Assembly (NCBI GenBank): GCA_963823665.1
Contig: CAWGMQ010000010.1
Coordinates: 1,728,001 to 1,792,000, forward strand
Direction of reading: 5' to 3'
Origin: an uncultured Planctomycetota bacterium
GTDB lineage: Bacteria > Planctomycetota > Planctomycetia > Isosphaerales > Isosphaeraceae
DNA length: 64,000 bases
Under the pieces are notes generated by a model that saw only the letters and a program-made list of their open reading frames with translations, had not been told where the DNA came from and did no database searches. Position 1 is the stretch's first letter, and every line of letters begins with the position of its first letter. Both the position numbers and the translations under genes were made by a program. Below, piece after piece: positions 20,123 through 64,000 of this stretch.

Positions 20123-20701
20123 ATGGCCGACGTCACGCAGATCTTGGCCGCCATCGAACAGGGCGACCGGCACGCCTCGGAGGAGCTGCTGCCGCTCGTC
20201 TACGACGAGCTGCGCAAGCTCGCCGCCGAGAAGCTGGCCCACGAACAGCCGGGTCAGACCCTGCAAGCGACCGCGCTGGTCCATGAGGCGTACCTCAGGC
20301 TGCTGGGCGGGAAGCAGACCCAGGATTGGGGCGGCCGCCGCCACTTCTTCGCCGCCGCCGCCGAGTCCATGCGCCGTATCCTGATCGACCGCGCCCGGCA
20401 CAAGCAGACCAAGAAGGCCGGGGGCGGCGGCCGCCGCCTCGACCTCGACGACATCGAGCCGATCCTGGAGGAGGAGAACGGCGACCGCTTACTCGCCCTG
20501 GACGAAGCCCTCCGGCAGCTCGAAGCGGAAGACCCGCGCAAGGCCGAGCTGGTCAAGCTCCGGTTCTTCGCCGGCCTCACCGCCCTACAGGCAGCCGCAG
20601 CGCTGGGCGTCTCCACCTCCACTGCCGAGAAGGACTGGGCGTACGCCCGGAGCTGGCTCCGGGTGGCGATCAACCGCATGTCGTCCGGCCACCAGCCCTG
20701 A
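20123..20701 (+). CDS. ECF sigma factor, TIGR02999/ECF43-like kinase-associated type (ECF-A)
   Basis: LLPLVYDELRKLA...QTLQATALVHEAYLRL...HFFAAAAESMRRILID...LVKLRFFAGL...DWAYARSWL. Confidence 0.93.
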   Translation: MADVTQILAAIEQGDRHASEELLPLVYDELRKLAAEKLAHEQPGQTLQATALVHEAYLRLLGGKQTQDWGGRRHFFAAAAESMRRILIDRARHKQTKKAGGGGRRLDLDDIEPILEEENGDRLLALDEALRQLEAEDPRKAELVKLRFFAGLTALQAAAALGVSTSTAEKDWAYARSWLRVAINRMSSGHQP

Positions 20702-20720
20702 CCGACCGCGAAAAAAAGCG

Positions 20721-20749
20721 TTACGGGTTCGGCCCCGGTTTCTCGCATT
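20721..20749 (+). promoter_or_regulatory. Putative ECF promoter, type A copy 1
   Basis: A-tract, then TTACGGG-N16-CGCATT. Confidence 0.65.
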
Positions 20750-20789
20750 AGGTTCTGGACGGGCCTCGCGGCCCGCTACTGAGGCTCCC

Positions 20790-23700
20790 ATGACCGAATC
20801 GCCACCCGACAACGAGGCGATCTTCTACGCCGCCCGGCAGGTTCCCGACCCGGACCGTCGGCGCGAGTTCGTCCGGGAGGCGTGCGGCCCAGACGAGGCA
20901 CGAATCGCCCGCATCGAGGCGCTGCTGGCGGCCGCCGAAGGCCCCGACAGCCTGCTGGACCGTCCAGTCCCGGCAACTGCCGTGGCGGCCTTCGGCCAGC
21001 CTGCCACGGAGAGCCCCGGCACGGTGATCGGCCCGTACAAGCTCATCGAGCAGATCGGCGAGGGCGGCATGGGCAGCGTCTGGATGGCCCAGCAGACCAA
21101 GCCTGTCTACCGCCTCGTCGCCGTCAAGCTGATCAAGGCGGGAATGGACTCCCGGCAGGTCATCGCCCGCTTCGAAGCCGAGCGGCAGGCGCTGGCCCTC
21201 ATGGACCACCCCAACATCGCCCGTGTGCTCGAGGGCGGCACCACCGGCGCTGGCCGGCCATATTTCGTCATGGATCTCGTCAAGGGTGTCCCGATCACCC
21301 GCTATTGCGACGAGCACCACCTCACGCCGCGGCAGCGGCTCGAACTGTTCATCACGGTCTGCCAGGCTGTCCAGCACGCTCATCAGAAGGGCATCATCCA
21401 CCGCGACTTGAAACCTACCAACGTGCTGGTCGCCCTCTATGATGGCAAGCCCGTGCCTAAGATCATCGACTTCGGCGTCGCCAAGGCGGCCGGGCAACAG
21501 TTGACCGACAAGACGCTGGTCACCCACTTCGGGGCAATCGTCGGCACGCTGGAATACATGTCGCCCGAGCAGGCGGAGTTGAACCAGCTCGACATCGACA
21601 CGCGCAGCGACATCTACTCGCTGGGCGTGCTGCTGTACGAGCTTTTGGCCGGCAGCCCGCCGTTCAGTCGCAAGGAGCTGACTCAGTCCGGCATGCTGGA
21701 AATGCTCCGCGTGATCCGCGAGCAGGAGCCAACCAAACCCAGCACGAAACTGAGCACTTCGGACGGCTTGCCGACCTTGGCCGCCAACCGCGGGACAGAG
21801 CCGGCGAGGCTGACCAAGCTGCTGCGTGGCGAACTTGATTGGATCGTGATGAAAGCGCTCGAAAAGGACCGCAACCGCCGCTACGAGACCGCCAACGGAT
21901 TCGCGATGGACGTGGCGCGCTACCTGGCCGATGAGCCGGTGCGGGCCTGTCCGCCGTCGGCCGGGTACCGGCTCCGGAAGTACGCCCGGCGCAACCGGGG
22001 TGGGCTGGCGGTGGCCGCGCTCTCGCTGTTCTTCCTCGTGCTTCTCGGTAGCGGCGTCGGGTGGGTCGTGCGCGATCGGTCGGCGCGGGAGATGGAAGCG
22101 GCCCGGCAACAGGGGGAGCGGCAGGCGAAGGTGGCCGGGCAGGTCATTTCGATCTTTGGCGAGGTAAACCGGCTGGAGAACGAGCAGAAGTGGCCCGAGG
22201 CCCTGGAGGCGGCCCGGCGGGCCGAGGCGGCCGTGGCCGTCGGCGAGGCAGATCCGGCAACCGCCGAGCGGGTCCACCAGCAGTTGAGGGAACTTGAGTT
22301 CATCGACCGGCTGGAGCGAATCCGGATGGAGAGGGCAACGCACGTTGAAGGGGTGTTCGACATTGCCGAGGCGGATCGGGATTACGCCCGGGCCTTCCGC
22401 GAGTACGGCGTCGATGTCGACGAGCTGCCGGTCGAGACGTCGATCGACCGGCTCAAGGCCCGCCCGCCACTCGCCGTCGTCTTGGCGGTGGCACTGGACG
22501 ACTGGGCTCGCGCCCGGCGCCAGGTCCCGCAACAGGATGCCGGCGGCTGGAAGCGGCTCGCGGCCGTGGCACGCGGTATCGACCCGGAGCCCCTGCGGGA
22601 CCGGGTCCGGGCGGCCTGGGGCCAGCCCGTCGCCAACGTGCCCGACGACCTGCTCCGGCTGGCCGACTCGATCGACGTTCGGGCCCAACACACCGCGACG
22701 CTCGACTTGCTCACCCGCACCCTCCGGCAGGTTCAGCATACCGACTCCGCGCTTCGGATTCTGCGGGAGGCGCACTTTGTCCACCCGGGCGATTTCTGGC
22801 TCAATTTCGAGCTGGGCCATGCGCTCCAGCAACAAGGAGACTACGAGGGCGCGGTTCGGTTCTACACCGCGGCCGTAGCCAGCCAACCGAGTTCGGCTGG
22901 CGCCCACAATAACCTCGGCAACGCCCTGTCCGCCCAGAAGCAGCCGGACGAGGCCATCGCCTGCTACCGCAAGGCCATCGAGCTCGACCCGAAATTCGCC
23001 GGCGCTTACCGCAACCTTGGCCTCGCCCTGCGCGACCAGGGCAAGCTGGACGAGGCCATCGTCGCCTTCGAAGAAGTCACCCGGCGCCAGCCGGATTTCC
23101 CCGAGGCGCATTTCGGACTTGCTTCAGTCCTCGCTCAGGCGAAGCAATGGGATCGCTCGGCTGGTGTCTACGCAGCAGCACTGAAGCGGTTTGGCGCCGA
23201 TCAATGGCCTGGGCCATGGTTTGAAGCCATCCGCTCCGACGAAGTTTTCACGCGCTTGACGGCCCAGCAACCGGATGCTCGCCTCCCTTGGATCGTCCGG
23301 GCTCGCCTCCATGTCTTCGAGCGCGACTGGAAACGCGCCGCGGCGGACTATACCCGCGCGAGCGAATCGTGGGCAAGCATGGGCCCGGCCGAACTCGCGC
23401 CGGAGGGCGATGACCTGCTTAGCTATGGCTGCCTGTTGCTCTTCTTGGGCGACCGCCACGGCTACGAGCAGTTTTGCAAAAAGTGGGCGGATGCGGTGGG
23501 CGACTCCCCGGCTTGTCGGTACAGCTTGGCGCGCGTCCGGGCGATGAGCCCCCGGCCGGTTGTCCCCGCGCAGCAGATCGTCGAGCTGGCTGGGAAGATC
23601 CTCCAGGCTGGTAGGTATCCCTGGGATCTACACGTCCTGAGCCTCGCCCACTACCGCAATGGGGAATTCGAACTGGCGGCCGAGCGCGCCCTTGAGTCGA

Positions 23701-23963
23701 ACGGGGGGAACTGGCGCGGCAGCGCAAAAGCTCTCAATTGGGTCGTCCTGGCGATGGCCCATTCCCGCCTGGGTCATGCGGCAGACGCGCGCAAGTCCCT
23801 GCAGCAGGCCCTCAAACTGGCCGGCCGAGCGAGCCCCGAGCAACTCCCCGGAGTGGAATGGCAGGACATGGCAGCGCCCGACGTCGTCGAATTCGAGCTC
23901 CTTCGCCGCGAGGCCGAGGAGCTCATCAACCCCAGATCGAAGGAAAAACCGGATAAGAAATAA
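20790..23963 (+). CDS. Membrane Ser/Thr kinase with TPR C-terminus (STK1, 4 core TPRs)
   Basis: Intact 1057-aa ORF with kinase motifs, a TM helix and 34-aa TPRs. Confidence 0.93.
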   Translation: MTESPPDNEAIFYAARQVPDPDRRREFVREACGPDEARIARIEALLAAAEGPDSLLDRPVPATAVAAFGQPATESPGTVIGPYKLIEQIGEGGMGSVWMAQQTKPVYRLVAVKLIKAGMDSRQVIARFEAERQALALMDHPNIARVLEGGTTGAGRPYFVMDLVKGVPITRYCDEHHLTPRQRLELFITVCQAVQHAHQKGIIHRDLKPTNVLVALYDGKPVPKIIDFGVAKAAGQQLTDKTLVTHFGAIVGTLEYMSPEQAELNQLDIDTRSDIYSLGVLLYELLAGSPPFSRKELTQSGMLEMLRVIREQEPTKPSTKLSTSDGLPTLAANRGTEPARLTKLLRGELDWIVMKALEKDRNRRYETANGFAMDVARYLADEPVRACPPSAGYRLRKYARRNRGGLAVAALSLFFLVLLGSGVGWVVRDRSAREMEAARQQGERQAKVAGQVISIFGEVNRLENEQKWPEALEAARRAEAAVAVGEADPATAERVHQQLRELEFIDRLERIRMERATHVEGVFDIAEADRDYARAFREYGVDVDELPVETSIDRLKARPPLAVVLAVALDDWARARRQVPQQDAGGWKRLAAVARGIDPEPLRDRVRAAWGQPVANVPDDLLRLADSIDVRAQHTATLDLLTRTLRQVQHTDSALRILREAHFVHPGDFWLNFELGHALQQQGDYEGAVRFYTAAVASQPSSAGAHNNLGNALSAQKQPDEAIACYRKAIELDPKFAGAYRNLGLALRDQGKLDEAIVAFEEVTRRQPDFPEAHFGLASVLAQAKQWDRSAGVYAAALKRFGADQWPGPWFEAIRSDEVFTRLTAQQPDARLPWIVRARLHVFERDWKRAAADYTRASESWASMGPAELAPEGDDLLSYGCLLLFLGDRHGYEQFCKKWADAVGDSPACRYSLARVRAMSPRPVVPAQQIVELAGKILQAGRYPWDLHVLSLAHYRNGEFELAAERALESNGGNWRGSAKALNWVVLAMAHSRLGHAADARKSLQQALKLAGRASPEQLPGVEWQDMAAPDVVEFELLRREAEELINPRSKEKPDKK

Positions 23964-23990: not shown

Positions 23991-24019
23991 TTACGGGTTC
24001 GGCCCCGGTTTCTCGCATT
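23991..24019 (+). promoter_or_regulatory. Putative ECF promoter, type A copy 2
   Basis: TTACGGG-N16-CGCATT. Confidence 0.65.
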
Positions 24020-24059: not shown

Positions 24060-26997
24060 ATGACGGCATCACCACCCGACAACGAAGCAATCTTCCACGC
24101 CGCCCGCGACATCCCCGACCCGGCCCGCCGTCGGGCGTACGTCCGGGAGGCGTGCGGCCCAGACGAACCCCGGATCGCCCACATCGAGGCGCTGCTTGTG
24201 GCCGCCGACGGCCCCGACAGCCTGCTGGACCGTCCGGCGGCGGCCGCCGTCTTGGCGGCCATCGGCCAGCCTGCCACGGAGAGCCCCGGCACGGTGATCG
24301 GCCCGTACAAACTTATCGAGCAGATCGGCGAAGGCGGCATGGGCAGCGTCTGGATGGCCCAGCAGGCCAAGCCTGTCTACCGCCTCGTCGCGGTCAAGCT
24401 AATCAAGGCCGGCATGGACTCCCGGCAGGTCATCGCCCGCTTCGAGGCCGAGCGACAGGCGCTGGCCCTGATGGACCACCCGAACATCGCCCGCGTGCTC
24501 GACGGTGGCACCGCGGGCGGTGGCCGGCCGTACTTCGTCATGGATCTCGTCAAGGGTGTGCCCATCACCCGCTACTGCGACGAGCACCACCTCACGCCGC
24601 GGCAGCGGCTGGAGCTGTTCGTCCCCGTGTGCCAGGCAGTGCAGCACGCGCACCAGAAGGGCATCATCCACCGCGACCTGAAGCCCTCGAACGTGCTGGT
24701 CGCCCTCTATGACGGCAAGCCCGTGCCCAAGATCATCGACTTCGGCGTGGCCAAGGCTGCCGGGCAACAGTTGACCGACAAGACCCTGGTCACCGGCTTC
24801 GGGGCGATCGTGGGCACGCTGGAATACATGTCGCCCGAGCAGGCTGAGTTGAACCAGCTCGACATCGACACGCGCAGCGACATCTACTCGCTGGGCGTGC
24901 TGCTTTACGAATTGCTGGCCGGCAGCCCGCCGTTTTCTCGCAAGGAGCTGACGCACGCCGGCGTGCTGGAGATGCTCCGCGTGATCCGCGAGCAGGAGCC
25001 ATCAAAACCGAGCACGAAACTGAGCACGGCGGACGGCTTGCCGACGTTGGCCGTCAACCGCGGGACGGAACCGGCCAAGCTGACGAAGCTGGTGCGTGGC
25101 GAGCTCGATTGGATCGTCTTGAAGGCCCTGGAAAAGGACCGCAACCGCCGCTACGAGACCGCCAACGGCTTCGCGATGGACGTGCAGCGCTACCTGGCGG
25201 ATGAAGCTGTACAAGCGTGTCCGCCGGGCGGCGGCATACCGGCTGCGGAAGTTTGTGCGGCGGCACAAGGGGCCGGTGCTCGCCGGGTTGTTGATCTTGC
25301 TGGCCTTACTCGCCGGCGTCGTCGGCACGACCTATGGCCTGATTCGGGCGAAACAGCAACGCAAGGTCGTCGAGAATCAACGCAACGAGCTCGCCGAGCG
25401 CAACCAGGCGCTGCAAGCAGCCCGTGAACATGAACGCCTCCTGAGCGAACGTGCCCGCCAGGCCATCGAAACGGTCACGTCCGAAGCGTCCATCGACCTG
25501 CTCATGCGCGAGAAGGAGCTCCGCCCGGAGCAAAAAGACTTCCTGGACAAAATGATCCAGTATTACGCCGAGGTCAGCCAGGACGGGGGCACCACCGAAC
25601 AGGAACGAACCCGGCAGGCGCGAGCCTACTATCGGATGGGGCGCATGAACGACATTCTGGGCCGGTCCCGTGATAGTCAGAACGCTTATCGCCGGGCCGT
25701 GTCGCTTCTACAGCAACTCGCCGACGAGTTCCCCACCAGGACCGAGTACCGGCAGGAACTTGCCCTCGCCCACAGTGCGCTTGGAAACCTGCTCAACCAC
25801 GGCTTCGGGCGGCTGAAGGAGGCGGAGTCGGCCTACCGCGACGCCTTGGCCATCCAGAAGAAGCTCGCGGCCGAGGTCCCCGGCCGGCCCGAGTTCGGGC
25901 AGACCCTGGCCGGGATTTACAACAACCTGGGCAACGTGCTCGTCCTCGACACCGCGCGGTTGAAGGAAGCGGAGTCGGCCCACGCCGAGGCCCTGGCGAT
26001 TCGTCAGCAGCTTATCGTCGCTTTCCCCGGCCGGCCCATACTCCACCGCGCCCTGGCGATGAGCCACAACAATCTTGGCTGGTTATTCCAGATTACCAGG
26101 CGGCCGGAGAAAGCCGAGCCGGCCTTGCGCGATGCGATCGCCGCCCAGAAGCAGGCTGTCGCCAGCTTCCCCGACCGGCCCGAGTTTCGTCTGGAACTGG
26201 CGAGCTACCTCTTCAACCTCGGCAACCTGATCCGCGACAAGGGGCTGCTCAAGGAAGCGGAGGCGATCTATGGCGAGGCGCTGCCGATTGAGAAGCACCT
26301 CGTTGCCATGTTCCCAGGTCGGCCCCAGTTCCACGAGGAGCTGGCCGCGGGCCACAACAACGTGGGCCTTCTGCTCCGGGACAAGGGCCTGCTTGAGGAT
26401 GCAGAGGCTGCGCAGACCGAGGCCCTGGCTATTCAGAAGCGGCTCGCCTCCGAGTTCCCCGAGGTCACCAAATATCGCAACGCGGTCGCCGGCACACTCT
26501 TCAACCTGGCGAACCTGGCCGGCAAGCGTCGCGACTTCGCCGCCGCCCGCCGATTCCTCGACGAGGCGCTCCCCCACCACCAGGCTGCGCTAAAGGGCGA
26601 TTCGCAACGTTCGGACTACCGGCAGTTTTATCGAAACAGCCTGCTTGAGCTGACCCGGACTCATGCCGGCCAGGGGGACCGTCCCGGGGCGCTCGCCGTC
26701 GCAATGAAGGGGCATGATTTCGGTTGGGACCCAGCCGCCGATGCCTACGGGGCCGCTTGCATGTTGGCCCAGTGCATGCCAATTGTCGACAAAGACGACA
26801 AACTCGCTGCGGCAACACGACAAGCCGAAATCGCGTTCTACGCCGACCAGGCGATGGCCATGCTCCGCGATGCCCTCGCCAAGGGCTACAAGGATGCCGA
26901 CCACATGCAGACGGACAAAGACCTCGACCCGCTACGGCCACGCGAGGACTTCAAGACGGTAGTCGCGGAGCTGGAGGCGAAGGTGAAGAAGAACTGA
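24060..26997 (+). CDS. Membrane Ser/Thr kinase with ~48-aa TPR-like repeats (STK2), frameshift near 25230
   Basis: ORFs 24018..25427 and 25201..26997. FPxRPExRxxLA repeats and a DxDLDPLRxRxDF cap. Confidence 0.9.
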
Positions 26998-27002: not shown

Positions 27003-27071
27003 AAGGACTGGGCGTACGCCCGGAGCTGGCTCCGGATGGCGATCGACCGCATGTCCGGCCACCGGCCCTGA
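27003..27071 (+). pseudogene. Orphan copy of the ECF-A 3' tail
   Basis: Encodes KDWAYARSWLRMAIDRMSGHRP*, matching 20630-20701. Confidence 0.9.
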
Positions 27072-27093
27072 CCGACCGGGAAGAAAAAATACG

Positions 27094-27121
27094 TTACGGG
27101 TACGGCCCCGATTCTCGCATT
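27094..27121 (+). promoter_or_regulatory. Putative ECF promoter, type A copy 3
   Basis: TTACGGG-N15-CGCATT. One base short, possibly a homopolymer error. Confidence 0.6.
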
Positions 27122-27162: not shown

Positions 27163-31189
<4,027 letters not shown>

Positions 31190-31216: not shown

Positions 31217-31245
31217 TTACCGGTTCGGCCCCGGTTTCTCGCATC
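31217..31245 (+). promoter_or_regulatory. Putative ECF promoter, type A copy 4
   Basis: TTACCGG-N16-CGCATC. Confidence 0.6.
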
Positions 31246-34200: not shown

Positions 34201-34567
34201 TTGACGGCCGAGCAACCGGATGACCGCCTCCCTCGGATCATGCGGGCTCGCCTCCATGTCTTGGAGCGCGACTGGAAATGCGCCGTGGCGGAGTATGCCC
34301 GCGTCTATGAATCGTTGGCAAGTATCGACCCGGCTAAGCTCCGCGTCGAGGGGGGCGATGGCCCATTCCCGACTGGGTCATGTGGAGGACGCGCGCAAGT
34401 CCCTGCAGCGCGCTCTCGAACTGGCCGGCCGAGCGAGCCCCGAGCAACCACCGGGACTGGCATGGCCCGACATGGCGCCGCCTGATTTCGTGGAATTCGA
34501 GCTCCTTCGCCACGAGGCCGAGGAACTCATCGACCCCAAATCGGAGGAGAAACGGGACAAGAAATAA
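31286..34567 (+). pseudogene. Membrane Ser/Thr kinase with 9 core TPRs (STK4); frameshift near 32650 and an out-of-frame 344-bp deletion at 34354
   Basis: ORFs 31286..32734, 32443..34485 and 34220..34567, compared with STK1 and STK3. Confidence 0.8.
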
Positions 34568-34569: not shown

Positions 34570-34730
34570 GGACTGGGCGTACGCCCGAAGCTGGCTCCGG
34601 CTGGCTATCGACCGTACATCCGGCCACCGGCCCTGACCGACCGGGAAGAAGAAAAACGTTACGGGTCCGCCCCCGGTTTCTCGCATTGTATTCTGGACGG
34701 GCCCCACGGCCCGCCGCGGAGGCTCCCATT
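34570..34730 (+). promoter_or_regulatory. ECF-A tail copy, type A promoter copy 5 and leader with a dead start codon
   Basis: ggactgggcgtacgcccg..., then TTACGGG-N16-CGCATT (34659-34687). The leader ends ggctcccATT where other copies read ggctcccATG. Confidence 0.75.
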
Positions 34731-51257: not shown

Positions 51258-51325
51258 GTGTCTCCGCGCCCCCGATTTCTCGCATGACGTTCTGGACGGG
51301 CCTCGCGGCCCGCCGCGAGGCTCGC
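51258..51325 (+). promoter_or_regulatory. Type A promoter/leader copy 8 with a degenerate upstream box
   Basis: cccccgatttctCGCATgacgttctggacgggcctcgcggcccgccgcgaggctcgc-ATG. The upstream box is not conserved. Confidence 0.55.
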
Positions 51326-54300
51326 ATGACCGCATCGCCACCCGACAACGAGGCGATCTTCCACGCCGCCCGCGACATCCCCGACCCGGACCGCCGGCGG
51401 AAGTACGTCCGGGAGGCGTGCGGCGAGAGACGAGGCCCGGATCGCCCACATCGAGGCGCTGCTGGCGGCCGCCGACAGCCCCGACAGTCTGCTGGACCGT
51501 CCGGTGGCGGCCGCTGCCTCGGCGACCATCGACCAGCCTACCACGGAGAGCCTCGGCACAATCGTCGGCCCGTACAAGCTCCTCCAGCAGATCGGCGAGG
51601 GGGGAATGGGCGCCGTCTACATGGCCGATCAGCTCGAGCCGGTTCGCCGCCGCGTGGCGCTGAAGATCATCAAGCCGGGGATGGACAGCCGCCAGGTCAT
51701 CGCCCGCTTCGAGGCCGAGCGGCAGGCCCTGGCCATGATGGACCACCAGAACATCGCCCGCGTCCTCGACGTCGGCACGACCGCCAGCGGCCGGCCCTAC
51801 TTCGTGATGGAGCTGGTCCATGGCGTGCCCATCACCCAGTTTTGCGACGACGGCAAGCTGAACCCGCGGCAGCGGCTGGAACTGTTCGTGCCGGTGTGCC
51901 AGGCGATCCAGCACGCGCATCAGAAGGGGATCATCCACCGCGACGTCAAGCCGTCCAACGTCCTGGTGACGATGTACGACGATCTTCCGGTGCCCAAGGT
52001 GATCGACTTCGGCGTGGCCAAGGCGGTCGAGCAGCGGCTGACGGAAAAGACGATGTTCACGCAGTTCGGCGCCTTTGTCGGCACCTTTGAGTACATGAGC
52101 CCCGAGCAGGCCGAGATGAATGCCTTCGGCGTCGACACGCGCAGCGACATCTACTCGCTGGGCGTCCTGCTCTATGAACTGCTTACAGGGACGACGCCCC
52201 TGGAGCAGAAACGGCTGCGCGAAGCAGGCCTGGCCGAGATGGTGCGGCTGATCAAGGAAGCGGAAGCGCCGCGGCCGAGCGTGCGGCTCTTCAGCTCGAA
52301 CAACCTGCCGAAGATCGCGGCGGCGCGGAACACGGATCCGGGCCGGCTATCGGGAATTGTCCGCGGCGAGCTCGACTGGATCGTGATGAAGTGCCTGGAG
52401 AAGGACCGCAAGCGGCGGTACGAAACCGCAAGCGGCCTGGCGCGGGACATCCAGAGATACCTCGCCGACGAGCCGGTGGAGGCGTGCCCGCCGGGCGCGG
52501 GCTACCGGCTGCGCAAGGCCGCACGCAAGCACCGCACGCCGCTGCTCGTGGCGAGCGCATTCCTGGTACTGCTGGTCTCAGGCGCGGTCGCCAGCGCCTG
52601 GCAAGCCGTTCGCGCCACCGTGGCCGAGAGAGAGGCCGAGAGCCGCAAGCGCGAGGCCGACGACGCCCGGGCGCAGGCCGAAGAGCGGCGCGACAAGCTG
52701 GCGGCCGTGAACGACACCCTGCGACGGGCCAGTTACGTCGCCGACGTGAACCTGGCCCACGTCGCCTGGGACGAGAACAATCTGAGCCGCGCCCACGAGT
52801 TGCTGGAGAAACACCGGCCCCGGCCCGGCGAGACCGATCTGCGCGGGTTCGAATGGCATTACCTTCGCCGTCTTTTTCAGCGCGATCTGCTCACCGTGAA
52901 GGCGCATCCCGGTGGGGTTACGGCCGTCGCCTTCACCCCCGACGGCAAGCGGCTGGTCACTTCCGGTGCGAGCCGCCCACGACAGAAATACTCGGACCCG
53001 AGGCTCGGCGATTTCAAGCTCTGGGATGCGGCTACGGGCCAGCAACTTCGCTTCCCGCTCGGCGGCCGCGCCCTTGAAGTGGAAAGAGTGGCGCTCAGCC
53101 CCGACGGTACCCGTCTCGCCGCGACTTGTTTGAATCAGACGGTCCTGGTATGGGAACTGGCCACCGGCGGCCTCGTCTCGCTGCAAGGGCCCGCGGGAGC
53201 GGTCGCCCGGAATGTGAATTTCAGTCCCGACGGCAAGCGACTGGTCTGCTCGTTTAACCCCGCTGACGACGATCCGACGAAGGATTCGCCGCGTTCGATC
53301 TGGATCTGGGACCTGGTAGAGCGCCGGGCCGTCGTGACCATCGATCGGCTCCCGTGGGGTGGATTCATGGCACCGTCCTTCAGCCCGGACGGCAAACTCC
53401 TGGCCGCCCCCCACGGGAGGGGTCTCGTCAAGGTGTGGGATGCGGCTACAGGCCACGAGGTCTTCTCTTGCAAATACGCCGATAGGTCAATCGTCTGTGA
53501 CGCAGCCTTCAGCCCGGACGGCAAACGTCTGGCCATCTGCGGTTATTATAACGGGATCCGCACCTGGGACGTGGCCAGCCGCGAGATGCTCTCCGCCTGG
53601 ACGTCCGAGTTCCAGGTCCGCGAATGCCTGGCCTTCAGCCGCGACGGCAAACGCCTGGCGACGGGAGGTATCCGCGGGATCGTCGAGGTGTGGGACACCA
53701 TGACGGGTCTCAAGGTCCAGACCTTCAAAGGGCACTTAGGACCGGTCGACGCCATCGCCTTCGCTCCGGACGGCATGCGCCTGGCCACCGGGAGCGCCGA
53801 CGGCACCTTGCGCCTCTGGGACGTGACCGAGCCTCCGGAGGCCGTCTCCATCCCCAAAGATGCAGCCGCGGCCGGAGGATTCCCCGACTTGAGCCCCGAC
53901 GGCCAGACGCTCCTGACCGATCCCGTATCGGGCGAGCGAAGGCCTCTTCGGCTCTGGGACACCGCCACGGGCAAGCCGCGCTGCGAGGCGATCGAGCTCC
54001 CGCAGCCCGCAGTCAGCTGGGCATGGACCGCCGACGGGAATCATCTGTACCTCGCAGACTCCGGCAAGGCCATCCGCGTCGTGGACGTCGCGACCGGCAA
54101 GGTGATCCGCACGTTCCCGGTCGACGCCGAAATCAATCCACTTAGGTACGACATCGCGCTTAGTCCTGATGAGAGATGGTGCGCGAACAGCGGGCCAGCC
54201 GGCACGATCACGGTGCGGGATGCCCAGAACGGCGCCCCATTCCGCACGATGGGGAAGCTCGAAGGCTCGGCGGGGATCTTGGCGTTCGGCCCGGACGGCT

Positions 54301-54758
54301 CGCGGTTGCTGGGAGCCGATGAGTACGGGGCGCTCAAGATCTGGGAAGTCGCCACGGGGCGCGAGATCGCGGCGACACGTTTGAGCGGCGTCTTGATCCA
54401 GGTCGCCCGGTTCAGCGCGGACGGAAAGCGCGTGGCCGTCGCGGGCCTCGTCGGTCAGTTGCTGACCGGTGAGGTGCGGATCCTGGACGCCGAAACCGCC
54501 CGCGAAGTCCAATCACTCAGGGGGCACTCCGCCAACGTGAAGGACGCGGTTTTCAGCCCCGACGGCGGGCGCCTGGCTACCGCGAGCGTGGACCAGACGA
54601 TCCGGATCTGGGACCTCGCCACCGGCCAGGAGATCCTCAAGTTGAGCGGCGACCCGAAGGTCTACACTGTCCGGTTCGTCGCGGGCGGCCGCCGATTGAT
54701 CGGCGCATCGGCGGATCGGACCATCCGCGTCTGGGACGCCACGCCGCTGCCGGAATAG
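51326..54758 (+). CDS. Membrane Ser/Thr kinase with WD40 propellers (STK6), frameshift near 51425
   Basis: [12 protein letters not shown] leader, kinase motifs, a TM helix, [10 protein letters not shown] and many [11 protein letters not shown] blades. Confidence 0.92.
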
Positions 54759-54807: not shown

Positions 54808-55365
54808 ATGAGTGAAGTCACACAGCTTTTGGATCAGATCCAGCAAGGCGATCCGCAAGCCGCTGCCGACCTGCTGCCCTTGGTCTATTCCGAATTGCGT
54901 CGCCTCGCCGCGGCGCGGTTGGCTCATGAAAAGCCCGGACAGACACTGGATGCGACGGCCTTGGTGCACGAAGCGTACCTGCGCCTGGTGGGGCCGGCCG
55001 ACGAGGAACGCTGGCGGAGCCGCGGCCACTTTTTCGCCGCCGCGGCCGAAGCAATGCGCCGAATTCTCGTCGAGCTTGCCCGGCGAAAGAGTCGAAAGAA
55101 ACGCGGGGGCGAACGTGTCCGCACGAACCTGGATCAGGTCGAGCCGGCTGCGGCGCCGCCCGGCGAGGACTTGCTGGCCCTCGACGAAGCCTTGACCCGG
55201 CTTGCCGTTGCCGATCCGATCGCCGCGGAGCTCGTGAAACTGCGCTATTTTGCCGGCATGACGATTCCTCAAGCCGCCGAATCTCTGGGCATAGGGAAGC
55301 GGTCGGCCGACCGGCTCTGGCTTTATGCCCGTGCCTGGCTGCGCAACGCGCTTTCCGAGAGCTAG
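54808..55365 (+). CDS. ECF sigma factor, TIGR02999/ECF43-like (ECF-B)
   Basis: MSEVTQLL...LLPLVYSELRRLA...QTLDATALVHEAYLRL...WLYARAWL. The start was chosen by alignment with ECF-A. Confidence 0.92.
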   Translation: MSEVTQLLDQIQQGDPQAAADLLPLVYSELRRLAAARLAHEKPGQTLDATALVHEAYLRLVGPADEERWRSRGHFFAAAAEAMRRILVELARRKSRKKRGGERVRTNLDQVEPAAAPPGEDLLALDEALTRLAVADPIAAELVKLRYFAGMTIPQAAESLGIGKRSADRLWLYARAWLRNALSES

Positions 55366-55386: not shown

Positions 55387-55415
55387 TGGCGCGATTTCTG
55401 CGCCGTTGGCGCATG
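55387..55415 (+). promoter_or_regulatory. Putative ECF promoter, type B copy 1
   Basis: TGGCGCG-N16-CGCATG. Confidence 0.65.
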
Positions 55416-55461: not shown

Positions 55462-58400
55462 ATGGGCGAACGATCGATTTTCATCGCGGCGCTGGAAAAG
55501 GACGATGCCGCCGAGCGCGCCGCCTATCTCGACCAGGCGTGCGCCGGTGATGAGCTCTTCGCGCACGGATCGAACGGTTGCTCAAGGCACACGAGCCCGC
55601 CGACAGTTTCCTCGAGCGAGGTCCCACAGTCCTGGATGCGACCGACAATCTCGATCCGATCGCGGAACCCCTCGGCACGGTCATTGGCCCGTACAAGCTT
55701 ATTGAGCCGATCGGCGAGGGGGGCATGGGCAGCGTCTGGATGGCACAGCAGACCGAGCCGATCAAACGCTTGGTCGCCGTCAAATTGATCAGGGCCGGCA
55801 TGGACTCCCGCCAGGTCATCGCCCGCTTCGAGGCCGAGCGGCAGGCGCTGGCCCTGATGGACCACCCCAACATCGCCCGCGTCCTGGACGCCGGCACCAC
55901 AAGCGCTGGCCGGCCGTACTTCGTCATGGATCTCGTCAAGGGAGTGCCCATCACGCGCTACTGCGACGAGCACCACCTCACGCCGCGGCAGCGGCTGGAA
56001 CTCTTCATCCCCGTCTGCCAGGCCGTCCAGCACGCTCATCAGAAGGGCATCATCCACCGTGACTTGAAGCCCTCCAACGTGCTGGTCGCGCAATACGACG
56101 GCAAGCCGGTGCCGAAGATCATCGACTTCGGCGTGGCCAAGGCTGCCGGGCAACAGTTGACCGAGAAGACGCTCGTCACCGGCTTCGGCGCGATCGTGGG
56201 CACGCTGGAATACATGTCGCCCGAGCAGGCGGAGTTGAACCAGCTCGACATCGACACGCGCAGCGACATCTACTCGCTGGGCGTGCTGCTCTACGAGTTG
56301 CTTACCGGCAGCCCGCCGTTTTCCCGCAAGGAGTTGACGCAGGCCGGCATGCTGGAGATGCTCCGCGTGATCCGCGAGCAGGAGCCATCGAAACCGAGCA
56401 CGAAGCTGAGCACGGCCGAAGGTTTGCCCACATTGGCCGCCAACCGCGGGACAGAGCCGGCCAAGCTGACAAAGCTGGTGCGTGGCGAACTGGATTGGAT
56501 CGTGATGAAGGCGCTGGAGAAAGACCGCAACCGCCGCTACGAGACGGCCAACGGCTTCGCCATCGACGTGCAGCGTTTCCTCTCGGGCGAGCCCGTGCTG
56601 GCGGTGCCGGCGACCACGCTGTACCGGCTGCGGAAGTTTGTAAAGCGGCACAGGGGGCCGGTGGCGGCGGTGGGGCTGGTCCTGCTCACGCTGGTCGGCG
56701 GCATAGCCGGGACGACGTCGGGTCTGCTGCGGGCCGCGGCGAAGAATCGAGAAGCCGTGGCCCAACGCGATGCCAAGGATAGGGCGCTGATAAGCGAGCA
56801 ACAGGCCCGCGCTGACGAAACGAAGGCCCGCCAGCAAGCGTTCGCCGCCTTGCGGAGCATGACCACCGACGTGGTCGAGAGGAAGTTCGCCCAGGGGACT
56901 GCGCTCACGGCGGACGATCGGGCGTTCCTCCGCGGTGTCATCGCACAGTTCGATGCCTTTGCGGCGATCAAGGGAAACGACGCCGGCAGCCGGTTTGTGC
57001 GGGCCGACGGACGATCGCGGGTCGGCAACATTCGTCGCAGACTAGGTGAGCTCAAGGAGGCGGAGCAGGACTTAGGCCAGGCTATGAGCATGTACAAGGA
57101 ACTGGCGGCCGACTTCCCTGGTCGACCCGACTTCCGCAAGGAACTGGCCGCAACTCACCGCCTCCGGGGCCTTCTGTTGGTTCAGTTGGGCCGGCTCAGA
57201 GAGGCGGAGCCGGACATCAACCAGGCCGTGACGCTCAACGAGCAACTGGCGGCGGACTTCGCCTCACAAGCCGACGACAGCCAGGAGCTGGCCAGAAGCT
57301 TTAACAACCGAGGCCTTCTGCGGCAGGAGACAGGCCGGCCGAAAGAGGCCGAGCAGGACTTCGAACAGGTCCTGCGCATCTACACGCAACTGGGGGCCGA
57401 CTTCCTTGGTCGACCCGACTTCCGCAAGGATCTGGCCCGTGGTCAGCATAACCTGGCTTTCCTGCTGAGCATCACGGGCCGGCTGCCTGAGGCGTTAACG
57501 GCCTTCGACCAGGCCCTGGGCGTCCAGAAGCAACTGGCGGCGGAGTTTCCGTCCCAACCCGAGTTCCGCAATGAGGCAGCCGTAACTCACATCGACCGGG
57601 GCACGCTGCTGGTGAACATGGGCCGGCCCAAGGAGGCGGAAGAGGACTGCGACCAGGCCGTGCGTATCTACACGCAACTGGCGGCTGACTTCCCCTCGGC
57701 ACCCGAATTCCGCACGAGGCTGGCCACAGGTCACCACAACCGGGGAAATGTGCGGCTCGCCACGGGCCGGCTGCCTCTGGCAGAGAAGGACTTCGATCAG
57801 GCCCTGAGTATCAACAAGCAACTCGCGGCCGACTTCCCCTCCCAAACTGCGTTCCGCCACGACCTGGCCTCCAGCCGCAGTGCCCGCGGCAGTCTGCTGT
57901 TGGAAATGGGCCGGCTCAAGGAGGCAGAGCAGGAATATGACCAAACCTTGAGCGTCCGGAAGCAACTGGTAGCCGAGTCCCCCAGCCAGCCGGACCTGCG
58001 GAAGGAACTGGGGGGCACCTTCGACAACCTGGCGCTTGTCTATCTGCGCCAAGGATACTTTGCTGCGGCCAAACCCCTGCTCCTGGAGGGCCTGCCGCAC
58101 CATCTGGCCGCCCTGAAGGTCAACCCCCGGCATCCTCAATATCGCCTGACCTACCGCAAGCATCTGAGCCTGCTGCCAGAGGTTCACGCGGAGCTGCTGG
58201 AGCAGGAAGATGCCGTGCACGCCGCTCTTGCCGTGGGGGACCTGGGTTATGACCCGCCCGCGGATGCCTACGACGCGGCGTGTCTTCTGAGCCGGTGCGT
58301 CCGGAGGGTATCGAAGCACGACAAGTTGGACGACAAAGAGCGCCAGCAGGCGGCGCAGTTCTACGGCGACGAGGCGATGAAGCTCCTCCGCGCAGCGGTG

Positions 58401-58541
58401 AGCAAGGGCTTCAAAAACGTGGCGCACATGAAAAAAGACACCGATCTCGATCCCTTGCGCAAGCGGGACGATTTCCAGAAGCTCGTCGCGGAGCTGGAGG
58501 CCGCGGCCGTCCCAGAAAAAGATAAAAGCATAGAAGAATAA
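55462..58541 (+). CDS. Membrane Ser/Thr kinase with diverged 48-aa repeats (STK7), frameshift near 55560
   Basis: MGERSIFIAALE leader plus ORF 55578..58541. Confidence 0.92.
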
Positions 58542-58554: not shown

Positions 58555-58583
58555 TTGCGCGATTTCCGCGCCGATGGCGCATC
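58555..58583 (+). promoter_or_regulatory. Putative ECF promoter, type B copy 2
   Basis: TTGCGCG-N16-CGCATC. Confidence 0.65.
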
Positions 58584-58628: not shown

Positions 58629-61600
58629 ATGAGCGAACGAACGATTTTCATCGCGGCGCTGGAAAACGACGATGCCAACGAGCGGGCCGCCTATCTCGAC
58701 CAGGCGTGCGCCGGTGATGAGCTCTTGCGCGAACGGATCGAACGGTTGCTCAAGGCACACGAGCCGGCCGACAACTTCCTCGAGCGTGCGTCCCGCAGTC
58801 CTCGATGCTACCGACAATTTTGAGCCAATCGCCGAATCTGCCGGCACGGTGATCGGCCCGTACAAGCTCATTGAGCCGATCGGCGAGGGCGGCATGGGCA
58901 GCGTCTGGATGGCACAGCAGACCGAGCCGGTCAAGCGCCTGGTCGCCGTCAAGTTGATCAAGGCCGGCATGGACTCCCGGCAGGTCATCGCCCGCTTCGA
59001 GGCCGAGCGGCAGGCGCTGGCCCTGATGGACCACCCGAACATCGCCCACGTGCTCGATGCCGGCACCACCAGCGGTGGCCGGCCGTACTTCGTCATGGAT
59101 CTGGTCAAGGGGATGCCCATCACCCGCTACTGCGACGAGCACCAGCTCACGCCGCGGCAGCGGCTGGAACTGTTCATTCCGGTCTGCCAGGCGGTCCAGC
59201 ACGCGCATCAGAAGGGCATCATCCACCGCGACTTCAAGCCCTCCAACGTGCTGGTCGCCCTCTACGACGGCAAGCCGGTGCCCAAGGTCATCGACTTCGG
59301 CGTGGCCAAGGCGACCGGGCAACAGCTGACCGACAAGACGCTGGTCACCGGCTTCGGGGCGATCGTCGGCACGCTGGAATACATGTCGCCCGAGCAGGCG
59401 GAGGTCAACCAGCTCGACATCGACACCCGCAGCGACATCTACTCGCTGGGCGTGCTGCTCTACGAGTTGCTGACCGGCAGCCCGCCGTTCTGCCGCAAGG
59501 AGCTGGACAAGGCCGGCATGCTGGAGATGCTGCGCGTGATCCGCGAGCAGGAGCCATCGAAACCGAGCACGAAGCTGAGCACGGCCGACGGCTTGCCGAC
59601 GCTGGCCGCCAACCGCGGGACGGAGCCGGCAAAGCTGACCAAGCTGGTCCGGGGCGAACTCGACTGGATCGTGATGAAGGCGCTGGAGAAGGACCGCGGC
59701 CGGCGTTACGAGACGGCCAACGGCTTCGCGATGGACGTGCAGCGCTACCTGGCGGGCGAGCCGGTGCTGGCGGCGCCGGCGACCGGCTGTACCGGCTGCG
59801 GAAATTTGTAAAGCGGCATCGGGGGCCGGTCGCGGCGGCGGGGCTGGTCCTGCTGACGTTGGTCGGCGGCATCGCCGGGACGACGTGGGGCCTGCTGGCG
59901 GCCGCGTGCCGAGGCGAAGAATCGAGAAGCCGTGGCCGAGCGCGATGCCAAGGATCGGGCCCTGAAAAGCGGAACAACAGGCCCGCGCAGACGAAACGAA
60001 GGCCCGGCAGCAAGCGTTCGCCGCCTTGCGGAGCATGACCACCGACGTGGTCGAGACGGAAGTTCGCCCAGGGGACGGTGCTGACGGAGGACGACCGGGC
60101 GTTCCTGCGCGGCGTCATCGCGCAGTTCGATGCCTTTGCGGCGATCAAGGGAAACGACGCCGACAGCCGGGCGATGCGGGCGGAGGGACGATTCCGAGTC
60201 GGCACCATGCGTCACAGGCTGGGTGAACTCCAGGAGGCGGAGCAGGACTACGACCAGGCCCTCATCATCCAGAAGCAACTGGCGGCCGACTTCCCCTCCC
60301 GCCCCGAGTTCCGCGAGGGCCTGGCCAATGGCCACAACAACCGGGGCATTCTGCTGCGGAAGACGGGCCGGCTCAAGGAGGCGGAGCAGGACTACGACCA
60401 GGCCCTGAGCATCAAGAAGCAACTGGCGGCCGACTTCCCCGCCCGACCCGAGTTCCGCCAGGAGCTGGCCAAAAGCCACAACAACCGAGGCACTCTGCTG
60501 CAGAAAACGGGCCGGCCCAAGGAAGCGGAGCAGGACTACGACCAGGCCCTGAGCATCCAGCAAGCAACTGGCGGCCGACTTCCCCTCCCGACCCGAGTTC
60601 CGCCAGGAGCTGGCCAGAAGCCACAACAACCGGGGCAATCTGCTGCGCGACACGGGCCGGCCCAAGGAGGCGGAGCAGGACTACGACCAGGCCCTCTTCA
60701 TCCAGAAGCAACTGGCGGCCGACTTCCCTGCCCGACCCGAGTTCCGCCAGGAGCTGGCCAGAAGCCACTTCAACCGGGGCGGTCTTCTGCGTGAGACGGG
60801 CCGGCTCCAGGAGGCGGAGAAGGACTACGACCAGGCCCTGAGCGTCCAGAAGCAACTGGCGGCCGACTTCCCCGCCCGACCCGAGTTTCGCCAGGAACTG
60901 GCCAGAAGCCACAACAGCCGAGGCAATCTGCTGCGTGACACGGGCCGGCTGACAGAGGCGGAGCAGGACTACGACCAGGCCCTGAACATCAAGAAGCAAC
61001 TGGCGGCCGACTTCCCCGCCCGACCCGAGTTCCGCCAGGACCTGGCCAGAAGCCACAACAGCCGAGGCAATCTGCTGCGTGACACGGGCCGGCCCAAGGA
61101 GGCGGAGCAGGACTACGGCCAGGCCGTATGCCTCTACAAGCAGCTAGTGGCCGACTTCCCCTCCCGGCCCGAGTTCCGCCAGGACCTGGCCAGAAGCCAC
61201 AACAGCCGGGGCAATCTACTGGCTACCACGGGCCGGCCCAAGGAGGCGGAGACAGGACTTCGACCAGGCACTGAGCCTCGACCAGCAATTGGCGGCCGAC
61301 TTCCCCAACCAGCCGGACCTGCGGAACGACCTGGCGGGCACCTGCGTGAACCTGGCGCATCTCCATCAACTCGAGGGGCAACTGGGCTGCCGCCAAACGG
61401 CTGCTCCTGGAAGGCCGGCCGCACCACCTGGCCGCCCTGAAGGCCAACCCCCGCCACCCGGCCTATCGCCAGTTCTATCGCACCCATCTCGGCCTGCTGA
61501 CCGAGGTCCACGCGGGGCTGCTGGAGCAGGAGGACGCTGTCCGCACCGCCGAAACGTGTCGGGACCTGGGCTGGAACGCGCCGGCGGATGCCTACGACGC

Positions 61601-61859
61601 GGCGTGCATGCTGAGCCAGTGCGTCCCCATCGTGGCCAAGCACGACAAGCTGGACGACCAGCAGCGGAAGCCAGCGGCGCAGTTCTATGGCGACGCGGCG
61701 ACGAAGATGCTCCGCGATGCAGTGAGCAAGGGCTACAAGGACTTGGCGCACATGAAGAAAGACACCGATCTCGATCCCTTGCGCCAGCGGGACGATTACC
61801 GGAAGCTCGTCGCCGAACTGCAGACCGCGGCCGTCCCAGAAAAAGTTAATAGCAGATAG
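58629..61859 (+). CDS. Membrane Ser/Thr kinase with near-identical 48-aa repeats (STK8), several frameshifts
   Basis: Paralog of STK7, pieced together from ORFs at 58629, 58672, 60078, 61147 and 61608. Confidence 0.85.
60230..61310 (+). repeat. 144-bp tandem repeat array inside STK8
   Basis: Anchor ggact(a/t)cg at 60245, 60389, 60533, 60678, 60822, 60966, 61110 and 61255. Confidence 0.92.
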
Positions 61860-61866
61860 GTGACAC

Positions 61867-61955
61867 GCCCGCGCCTGGCTGCGTGACGCAGCTTTCTGCC
61901 AGCTAGAAATTAGCCAACGGATTTCTTGGCGCGAATTCCACGCCGACGGCGCATG
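61867..61955 (+). promoter_or_regulatory. Orphan ECF-B 3' tail plus type B promoter copy 3
   Basis: gcccgcgcctggctgcgtgacgcagctttctgccagctagaaattagccaacggattt resembles 55327-55383. TGGCGCG-N16-CGCATG lies at 61927-61955. Confidence 0.75.
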
Positions 61956-62007: not shown

Positions 62008-62164
62008 ATCACCGAACTGACTACACCCAAAGCGAAGCGGCCGGCGGGGTCCTTACCGCCAAGCAAGCCCCCGCCGGCCCGGCAACGCTCCAGCGATCGG
62101 TCTGCGCGCTGGGACGATGTCTATTGCATTGTATCGCAGACCAGCTCCCGAAAGGAGAAACATC
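62008..62164 (+). ncRNA. Candidate structured 5' leader, copy 2
   Basis: Stems 62039-49/62069-79 and 62099-106/62135-42, then an AAAGGAG RBS. Confidence 0.45.
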
Positions 62165-62793
62165 ATGTTGTCCTCTTCCTGGCTGCGAAACTCGAAAAGC
62201 TCCGCACCCGTGGCGGCCCGGCGCACACCAACATCCCCTCGCCGGCGAACCAGTGTCCGCCCGCGACTGGAAGCGATCGAAGATCGCTGTTTGATGTCGA
62301 CGGCCGTCGTGCAAACCAACCTCGTGTCTGACGACACCCAATTCACTTCGGCCCAGATTCAGGACCCGAACCTGGTCAATCCCTGGGGGCTGGCCGTCGG
62401 TCCAACCGGCGCGTGGTGCGTCGCCAACGAGGGAACGGGCACCAGTACGCTCTACAACACCTCGAAAATCAGCCGTGGGCAGTAGCGATGGCCCCCTCGA
62501 ACTTTGGCAGCTTCAGCCACGATCTGCTGGTCGGCAATTTCGGCGACGGCACGATCAACGCCTTCAATCCCAAGAACGGCCATTTCGCCGGTGAGCTCAA
62601 GAACTCGAGCGGCCAACCGATCGCCATCACGCACCTGTGGGGGCTGGTGTTCGGCAATGGCGGCGCCGCCGGCCCCAAGAACACGCTGTACTTCACGGCC
62701 GGCCTGACCTCGCACCTGGCCCCCAGCGACAACCCTTTCCACGGCCTGTTTGGCTCCCTGCGAATGGCGCGGCACCGGCCAGGCGGGCGCTGA
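62165..62793 (+). pseudogene. TIGR03118-like secreted protein with a LEPR-XLL-like signal and a large internal deletion
   Basis: RPRLEAIEDRCLMS, QTNLVSD, DPNLVNPWGLA and GTSTLY, joined out of frame near 62465 to QPW...LLVGNFGDGTINAF...LWGLVFGNG...LYFTAG...HGLFGSL. Confidence 0.75.
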
Positions 62794-62914
62794 CGGTCAA
62801 CGGGAGCGTGGCCGTCCCCGTGAGAAAGTCGGTGTCAGATCATGAGTTTGAGAAAGGATGAACTGACACCGAGTTGCTGCGATCGGCGCGGATTCCGAAA
62901 AAAAAGCTCTCTGC

Positions 62915-62943
62915 TGGCGCGATTCTGGTCTGGACGGCGCATT
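62915..62943 (+). promoter_or_regulatory. Putative ECF promoter, type B copy 4 (upstream of the second surface protein)
   Basis: A-tract, then TGGCGCG-N16-CGCATT, in otherwise non-homologous context. Confidence 0.65.
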
Positions 62944-63203
62944 AAGGGGTGACGTAAGCGGCCGACCATCGTCTCAGGCCGATCCGCGATACCTAAGCAC
63001 GTTCGATCTCACGAATGGCCGACAGAGGTGATCACCGGACTGTAAGCAAGCTTACTCAGTCGCGCGTTGGCGGTGATCAAGGCCACGGCCGGTCCATTGT
63101 CGGAGCCGGGGACATCGAGAGTGCCGCGCCCGCGTCTCGGGAATCGCACCGCTTCGCATCACACCGTATCGCAGGGCATTTCACTCGAGAGAGGAGACGA
63201 GCC

Positions 63204-64000
63204 ATGGTCAGCCGTCACAGACTTCCAGAGCGGTTCGCGTTCGACTCCCGCGCGGTTCCGCATCGCCGCCTCCGCCGCCGCCCGGTCCTGGAGCTCCTCG
63301 AGGGCCGCGCCCTTCTGGCCACGTTCACGGTCACCAACGCGGGGGATGTGGGGATCGGTTCCAACGACGCGGGCGACTTGCGGTACTGCATCAACGAGGC
63401 CAACGCCGATAACCAGGCAAACACGATCGTCTTCGATTCGACGGCGTTCGCCACGCCCCAGACGATCACGCTGGCCGGCAGCCAGCTCGAGCTGGAAGAC
63501 ACCGGGGGGACGCAGACGATTACCGGGCCGGCGGCGGGTGTGACGATCAGCGGCGGCGGACAGAGCCGGGTGTTCCAGATCGACGGCGGTGTGACCGCCT
63601 CGATCTCCGGCCTGACCATCTCAGGCGGCTCGACCTCGGGCGAAAATGGCGGCGGTCTGGCGAACTACGGCACGGCGACGCTCACCGGCTGCACCTTGAG
63701 CGGCAACTCCGCCGCCCTCACTTACTACAACGGCTACTTCAGCGGCGGCGACGGTGGCGGCGTGGTCAATGGCCAAGCGGCGCCGAACTTCGGGAACGGC
63801 TATGGCGCGGCCAGCTTGACCATGACCGACTGCACCTTGAGCGGCAACTCTGCCGCAGAGGGTGGCGGCGTGTCCAATTCCGCCACGGCCTACCTGGCCT
63901 TGACCGACTGCACCTTGAGCGGCAACTCCGCCGCCGAGGGCGGCGGCGTATCCAGTTCCGCCACGGCCTACCTGGCCTTGACCGCCTGCACCGTGAGCGG
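63204..64000 (+). CDS. Paralog of the giant beta-helix surface protein (runs off the window end)
   Basis: GAGGAG RBS; MVSRHRLPERFAF...RRPVLELLEGRALLATFTVTNAGD...GDLRYCINEANAD. Confidence 0.88.
   Translation, partial: MVSRHRLPERFAFDSRAVPHRRLRRRPVLELLEGRALLATFTVTNAGDVGIGSNDAGDLRYCINEANADNQANTIVFDSTAFATPQTITLAGSQLELEDTGGTQTITGPAAGVTISGGGQSRVFQIDGGVTASISGLTISGGSTSGENGGGLANYGTATLTGCTLSGNSAALTYYNGYFSGGDGGGVVNGQAAPNFGNGYGAASLTMTDCTLSGNSAAEGGGVSNSATAYLALTDCTLSGNSAAEGGGVSSSATAYLALTACTVS

Follow-up and report, generated by a model that had tools for sequence, protein, structure and literature searches.

Pairing of ECF43 sigma factors, which belong to the extracytoplasmic function (ECF) class, with Ser/Thr kinases is well established (PMC13147305, PMC8999054, PMC6653060, PMC7826278). 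In the available text of these reports, Xanthomonas citri EcfK/PknS and Vibrio parahaemolyticus EcfP/PknT each combine a PF07638 sigma, in which Thr replaces the acidic σ2.2 motif, with a kinase encoded at position +1 that has one transmembrane (TM) segment and periplasmic tetratricopeptide repeats (TPRs). The published range of ECF43 was stated as “only Proteobacteria,” and the accessible accounts afterwards enlarge the group to more than 900 members. An expansion of Ser/Thr kinases with TM segments and TPR or WD40 domains has been described for Planctomycetota in the available sections of PMC11032199 and PMC8567305, and the contexts published for the ECF217 group include planctomycete extracellular proteins. 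Here we analyze a tandem array of sigma and receptor-kinase genes in a 64,000-nt stretch of DNA (the window; G000:C10:1,728,001–1,792,000) from G000, the source genome of 16.5 Mb in 12 contigs, assembled from an uncultured member of the Isosphaeraceae. Judged from its sequence, the array is an expanded ECF43-type sigma/PknS-like receptor-kinase system, thus of a known kind, and its best-supported new element is a predicted cognate promoter downstream of the sigma gene, together with a residue-to-base recognition code.

Assignment to the ECF43 type rests here on PF07638 (the Sigma70_ECF domain) and TIGR02999, on the σ2.2 motif, and on kinase context. ECF-A1 (20123..20701; all features lie on the + strand unless stated) and ECF-A2 (54808..55365, 59% identical to ECF-A1) match PF07638 at E values of 1e-63 and 6e-63 and exceed the TIGR02999 cut-off with 219 and 206 bits, respectively. 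The acidic σ2.2 motif is replaced by QATA in ECF-A1 and DATA in ECF-A2 (ECF43 consensus QTTA), and T50 of ECF-A1 is invariant across 48 homologues. K1 and K7 show the ECF43 trait of a +1 kinase with one TM segment and extracytoplasmic TPRs. K1 (20790..23963), an intact gene of 1057 aa that encodes an N-terminal helical domain, a Hanks kinase, a TM segment, and a TPR sensor, has PknS as its best solved relative and aligns with PknS(1-364) (PDB 9EED) from residue 9 onward, N-terminal extension included (E 5e-62), which bears out the kinship with ECF43/PknS that an earlier note on this DNA had proposed. The records closest to ECF-A1 carry the labels Planctomycetota, Isosphaerales/Isosphaeraceae, Gemmataceae, or Planctomycetaceae, which place the host in Planctomycetota, and the data suggest that ECF-A1-like sigmas may have been transferred between lineages. 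Homologues 82–85% identical to ECF-A1 are found at loci L238, L239, and L244, in records that carry, as deposited, the labels Gemmataceae or Planctomycetaceae.

Most likely, on sequence grounds, the short header that follows ECF-A1 is the sigma's own promoter. We analyzed 130 distinct planctomycete ECF43 genes, of which G000 contributed 30 and its relatives 100 (131 were found and one was dropped for its short flank). A (T/G)CGCA(T/C) −10-like box is present within a 100-nt stretch around the stop codon, mostly 10–60 nt past it, in 65 of the 130 genes, compared with 3 in the reverse-strand control, 6 upstream, and 4 further downstream. Because the first matrix had been seeded by eye, a matrix was retrained on 17 G000 sites only; it detected sites at 49 of the 100 genes in other genomes, vs. 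6, 6, and 2 in the controls. At held-out loci (60 of 63 usable), the motif appeared in 36 of 60, vs. 2 and 7 in controls.

We examined covariation between sigma residues and motif bases in 64 sigma–motif pairs, retained after filtering by score and distance, whose proteins have a median identity of 57%. The five top couplings (Z 9.5–24.5) join residues 96 and 70 in σ2 to the −10 flanks and residues 169, 166, and 170 in the σ4.2 helix to −35 bases; the maximum Z in permutations had a median of 5.5, a 95th percentile of 7.0, and a highest value of 9.9. R96 occurs with G in 36/36 pairs and any other residue with non-G (C/T) in 28/28; N70 occurs with C (17/17) and D70 with T (29/32). At the −35 element, R170 pairs with G in 40/46 and non-R170 with non-G in 18/18, R166 with GC in 26/30 and A166 with AG in 11/18, while residue 169 distinguishes GG (E, 12/13), CC (K, 7/8), AC (N, 6/7), and GC (D, 12/20). 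Held-out loci reproduce R96-G in 15/17 and non-R with non-G in 19/19, R170-G in 12/14 and non-R with non-G in 22/22, A166-AG in 7/7, and E169-GG in 13/15. On the best tree, residue 96 requires 16 changes. This covariation, which is observed directly, supports the proposal of the earlier note that the kinase and output genes are probably under the sigma's promoter. Autoregulation of the sigma gene itself was considered and rejected: the sigma's own motif lies upstream in 8/130 genes vs. downstream in 60/130. Since the motif is rare upstream of sigmas, positive feedback would go via the kinase. There is no enrichment of a housekeeping −10 element before ECF43 genes.

Within the array, the header takes two forms. 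Type A, TTACGGG-N13-TCTCGCAT, has eight sites in the window, and type C, TGGCGCG-N13-TGGCGCAT, has four; the chance expectation at ≤7 mismatches is 0.05 and 0, respectively, per 123 kb. Predicted type A promoters precede K1 (20709..20748, with an A-tract), K2 (23991..24018), K3 (27003..27120, with an ECF-A1 3′ tail and a 12-nt spacer), K4 (31217..31244), the ECF-B pair (34570..34686, again with an ECF-A1 3′ tail, the start codon of the following kinase being lost), a secreted-protein gene stub (40085..40112), and giant gene 1 (40532..40559); the type A header of K6 (51267..51285) lacks the −35 half. Predicted type C promoters precede K7 (55387..55414), K8 (58555..58582), a TIGR03118 gene (61927..61954, with an ECF-A2 3′ tail), and giant gene 2 (62915..62942, with a differing spacer). 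With the spacer left free, type A occurs seven times in G000, always within the array. Across the order, the type A pattern is present in 9 of 121 genomes, G000 counted. The type C pattern occurs eight times in G000, of which five are in the array, one is behind another ECF43 gene, and two are in short tandem repeats; these look-alikes are tandem TGGCGCA repeats at G000:C5:1080672 and C6:447051. The spacer can diverge while both boxes are conserved, as at L247, where the sigma is 62% identical, TTACGGG is kept, and a second copy lies downstream. Type A accords with ECF-A1 and type C with ECF-A2. One sigma had been thought to serve the whole set; instead we find two ECF43 promoter types plus a TIGR02984 pair, itself behind a type A header. 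In this pair, ECF-B (34934..35566) passes the TIGR02984 test (186 bits vs. a cut-off of 183.75), and its partner K5 (35585..39997), which adjoins at 19 nt, carries a kinase of another clade (33–37% identity), a TM segment, WD40 and TPR domains, and three frameshifts. Nearly every unit had been described as headed by one and the same portable block; the headers form two families, and none stands directly before K5, the di-haem gene at 49217, or either of the two ECF43 genes.

The kinase genes are mosaics, in which three parts sort independently: promoter plus N-terminal helical domain, kinase, and sensor. K2 (24060..26997; one frameshift near 25226) and K7 (55462..58541; frameshift near 55553) have a kinase, a TM segment, and a 48-aa TPR-like sensor, and K8 (58629..61859; several frameshifts) resembles K7. 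K3 (27163..31189; frameshift near 27566) ends in a long array of 34-aa TPRs, and K4 (31286..34567), with 34-aa TPRs behind its kinase and TM segment, has a frameshift near 32649 and a deletion of ~335 nt near 34350 at a GGCGATG microhomology. In K6 (51326..54758; frameshift near 51425), the head is of type A and is followed by a divergent kinase (69% aa identity to K1), a TM segment, and a WD40 sensor. Each of K1–K8 has a TPR or WD40 sensor and one hydrophobic helix (peak KD19 1.9–2.9); the Hanks motifs GxGGMG, VAxK, HRDxKPxN, DFG, and SPE are complete in K1, K2, K4, K6, K7, and K8, and the C-terminal ones are present in the stretch of K3 examined. Header plus N-terminal domain is 78–90% identical within a type and 44–54% between types, while kinase DNA is 88–93% identical across header types and sensors are reassorted. 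In K7, K8, and K12, a K1-like kinase stands behind a type C head, and K12 has a membrane region of the K3/K4 type. Among K1 and K2 orthologues, synonymous divergence (dS) is higher in the kinase (0.25–0.39) than in the sensor (0.14–0.20) and nears that between paralogues (0.38–0.44), as expected if kinase domains were exchanged among copies. The array was earlier described as recombining, and its mosaic modules and variable cassette order agree. No recombinase, such as an integron or shufflon would have, was found among 30 proteins scanned, open reading frames past the window being inspected by eye only.

The N-terminal domain may track the type of sigma. Kinase partners were paired with 86 of 190 sigmas; in all 19 comparisons where the N-domains were ≥60% identical, the sigmas were ≥70% identical as well, whereas this held in only 15 of the 75 comparisons with kinase identity of ≥85%. 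The domain matches no convincing Pfam family, and its profile match to 9EED is weak (E 0.19). A predicted complex of ECF-A1 with the N-domain scored 0.51 (best of three controls, 0.00), in a band (≤0.60) that contains 18 of 157 solved complexes and also the only two of 215 mismatches to pass; model runs agreed in at least 71% of contacts, with partner pLDDT (predicted local distance difference test) of at least 73. The modeled complex thus gives weak support to binding of ECF-A1 to the N-domain. We tentatively suggest, as a possibility somewhat short of even, that promoter, leader, and the ~70-aa N-terminal helical domain together form a sigma address: the promoter would assign the gene and the helical domain would dock the kinase on the same sigma, leaving kinase and sensor freely exchangeable. 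Each planctomycete genome would in this way maintain dozens of phospho-sigma channels that are orthogonal to one another and whose inputs are rewired by recombination, while a conserved RNA leader would gate the secreted outputs. This proposal offers a testable role for the uncharacterised N-terminal extension, which is also present in PknS.

The outputs are headed by a second portable element, a leader of ~115 nt with two hairpins and a ACCGCCAAG loop, which precedes secreted-protein genes. In the window, it lies at 40239..40357, ahead of the stub at 40370, and at 62035..62151, ahead of a TIGR03118-family secreted protein gene (62165..62793) with an internal deletion of ~540 nt and an intact copy past the window. 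Both-side changes occur in 9/19 leader base pairs, a level reached in 0/500 shuffles, although kinship may inflate this figure. Of the 12 leader matches in G000, several of which were in the training set, five are in the array and five in two other ECF43–kinase loci, and the remaining two follow a TIGR02984 sigma at 3 kb and an ECF43 fragment at 5 kb. Sites of the leader include L001 12178 and 12545 and L002 9531. In many ECF43 loci (chosen for ECF43), the leader stands between the stop codon of a long gene, often a kinase, and a secreted-protein gene, and across the phylum it was found in 3/121 genomes including G000, a weak figure given that just 29 candidates were scored per genome. In G083 it precedes the ECF-B homologue, which suggests that ECF-B/K5 forms a second tier, downstream of the first. 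No Rfam family matched the leader at gathering score in 104 kb (only chance hits appeared at E up to 10), and no match was found in the literature searched; its consensus differs, as compared by eye, from that of Rhodopirellula-1 in the accessible part of PMC2864571. Giant secreted repeat protein 1 (40656..49201, with several frameshifts) has choice-of-anchor Q, MBG_2, and Big_3_5 domains, and giant 2 starts at 63204 and runs through the window end at 64000 to ~71,060. The domains of the giants support the adhesin-like outputs that had been predicted. Their LExRxLL signal-like N-terminal stretch, which no model matched, we take to be a planctomycete export signal. A headerless, frameshifted gene for a di-haem oxidoreductase-like secreted protein (PF06537) follows giant 1 at 49217..51224.

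Earlier counts for 20123–64000, three ECF sigmas, eight kinase–TM–repeat genes (K1–K8), and two giant secreted repeat proteins, all on the + strand, are correct, as are the content and strand of the one-strand array; its length is not ~44 kb but ~77 kb, running past the window to ~96,730 (C10:1,824,730; coordinates above 64,000 extend the window numbering). With remnants included, the whole array comprises 12 kinase and four giant genes, besides four ECF43 genes, one TIGR02984 sigma gene, and copies of TIGR03118. GC content, 0.605 upstream, climbs to 0.664 within the array (mean 0.632 over 57 other G000 stretches). A related array in G001, of the same genus, has eight type A copies in another order and an inverted foreign pair, and G012, G083, G117, and G081 contain shorter versions in further orders. 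The 28 kb upstream of the G001 array has almost no similarity to the upstream flank in G000, so the site differs between the two. G000 itself has at least 41 TIGR02999 and at least 17 TIGR02984 matches over cut-off (150 candidates scored for each), and at five other loci, two or three whole same-clade kinases lie behind one ECF43 gene, one of these loci with a clear promoter copy (28/31 bases). The array is thus the extreme of a process common in G000. Two sigma-less kinases on C3 (L045 10258 and 18292; G000:C3:1.61 Mb) bear the promoter type of an ECF43 gene on C12 (27/31 bases), which suggests that they may be controlled in trans from another contig. Loci L012–L013 (G000:C6:342–355 kb) and L019 contain three tandem, near-identical ECF43–kinase pairs, with a fourth on C10, in which the −10-like box lies within the sigma 3′ end.

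Taken together, these results make it probable that the locus is an expanded, private, many-input regulon of ECF43 sigmas and receptor Ser/Thr kinases that gains, swaps, and loses cassettes. We propose that an ECF43 sigma would be produced inactive; a membrane kinase would sense a periplasmic ligand via its TPR or WD40 domain and, by analogy with EcfK and EcfP, phosphorylate the σ2.2 threonine. Once active, the sigma would read the promoter that lies immediately past its own gene; this promoter would drive first the kinase, so that positive feedback would run via the kinase instead of the sigma, and next the secreted proteins, often behind the two-hairpin leader. What we observe is the anatomy of the array, the covariation of promoter bases with sigma residues, the mosaic structure, and the differing order across genomes; that the motif starts transcription, that each of the kinases phosphorylates a sigma, and that feedback and a stimulus operate is what we infer. 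Promoter, leader, and kinase start are compact enough to travel as one block. Cassettes could therefore spread under the same sigma by duplicating in tandem and by recombining homologously where kinase domains are nearly identical, bringing many kinases, a second sigma–kinase pair, and adhesin-like genes under its control.

Several observations weigh against this account. About half of the ECF43 genes have no scoring motif, 10 of the 36 sites at held-out loci come from close relatives of ECF-A1, and the header of K6 lacks its −35 half. A tree-based contrast test of the couplings was not significant, because too few independent pairs (0–3, with two for residue 96) fall on well-supported branches. 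For the N-domain, rank correlation with sigma identity (0.26) is lower than that of the kinase (0.33), and its association with sigma type could arise from physical linkage alone. No contig or read among the public contigs spans the whole array, and its larger deletions look like real decay of several copies.

The array has also been likened to eukaryotic immune-receptor clusters, and an immune-like receptor cluster under diversifying selection against predators or competitors is an alternative that we consider doubtful. Eukaryotic receptor-kinase and NLR clusters are known for tandem paralogues, ectopic recombination, birth and death, and variable repeat sensors, all of which they have in common with the array. 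The tandem paralogues, module exchange, and decay of the comparison do hold here; the sensors are two to five times less constrained than the kinases, and across 17 repeats the TPR varies most at a set of positions that includes 2, 5, 6, and 9. According to the available text of PMC13147305, moreover, EcfK/PknS defends against amoebae. However, the ratio of nonsynonymous to synonymous divergence (dN/dS), from pairwise counts between orthologues, is 0.27–0.55 for sensors (K1, 0.30–0.46; K2, K5, and K6, 0.27–0.55 across genomes) vs. 0.10–0.17 for kinases, and whole-sensor dN/dS is <1 in every comparison, so that no positive selection on sensors was found in these orthologous pairs, from which a non-orthologous G083 sensor was excluded. 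Because the sensors are under purifying selection, the immune-receptor analogy is weakened. Adhesin-like and redox proteins make up the outputs, a scan of 30 proteins having revealed neither a toxin nor a secretion machine, and, in contrast to the eukaryotic clusters, the array would act through a sigma factor.

It is less probable still, and we regard it as unlikely, that the array is neutral duplication debris, in which one working ECF-A1/K1 pair is accompanied by hitch-hiking, decaying copies. Such decay would account for the deletions seen in K4 and in copies of TIGR03118 (at 62165), K5 (at 71080), and K6 (at 94822), as well as for the stubs at 40370 and 92661. In the assembly, frameshifts, mostly of single bases, interrupt giant 1 and every window kinase except K1 (seven of eight); yet in the same assembly rpoB is also frameshifted and rpoC has an in-frame TGA stop (L046 10122–14007 and 15894–20000, G000:C3), so most frameshifts are probably assembly errors. 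Public contigs of relatives have no indel at 25227, 27566, 38902, or 39481, a K6-like gene is open over 1158 aa in G117, and the K2, K5, and K6 sensors evolve under purifying selection, all of which argues against debris.

We consider it very unlikely that the motif is a conserved leader or the site of another factor, linked to the sigma only by position. It does physically adjoin the sigma gene, and the tree test is underpowered; against this, the couplings focus on σ2 with the −10 and the recognition helix with the −35, and boxes stay where the spacer diverges, as in the L247 copies. Although the assembly is error-rich and unspanned, repeat mis-assembly has hardly any probability left and is largely refuted, because arrays elsewhere (G001, G012, G083, and G117) carry the same cassettes in other orders, a variability between genomes that is seen directly and shows that the locus is not invariant, and because the kinase copies are 88–93% identical rather than identical.

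Outside the array, the window contains a solo kinase–TM–TPR gene of the same clade (7322–10300, − strand; 65% kinase identity), with no adjoining ECF43 gene and no scoring promoter, and a BlaR1/M56 peptidase gene with carboxypeptidase-regulatory repeats (12167–15217), upstream of the array.

The expanded regulon exemplifies how many-input signaling may be built from one-to-one pairs. Targets of planctomycete ECF43-type sigmas, of which G000 has at least 41, were not found in the accessible portions of the literature searched; with the downstream promoter and code, their regulons could be predicted from sequence alone and the predictions tested in a heterologous host, and the two would offer a set of orthogonal, phosphorylation-gated sigma–promoter pairs. 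Neither the downstream promoter, the recognition code, nor the cassette array was found in that literature, the coverage of which was incomplete. The approach resembles that of Todor et al. (bioRxiv 10.1101/2020.06.23.168245), who related σ2 and σ4 residues to −10 and −35 bases by mutual information; their accessible main text uses sequence upstream of sigmas, operons, or divergent genes and contains neither “ECF43” nor “Planctomyc.” The ECF43 promoter described in the available part of PMC7826278 is an upstream prediction for proteobacterial members, GTC (−35)/CAG (−10), whereas the element here is downstream with a (T/G)CGCA(T/C) −10; the GTC/CAG motif is not found here, and, as a prediction, it is not a defining test. 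With the kinase-linked ECF groups of Planctomycetota (ECF59–62 and ECF217), the array shares the architecture, lineage-specific duplication, and domain reshuffling described in the accessible text of PMC11032199, and it differs from that account in its promoter-linked cassettes, order variation, and recognition code. Unlike EcfK/PknS and EcfP/PknT, it has many kinases per sigma, each headed by a predicted promoter, and secreted repeat proteins as its likely outputs.

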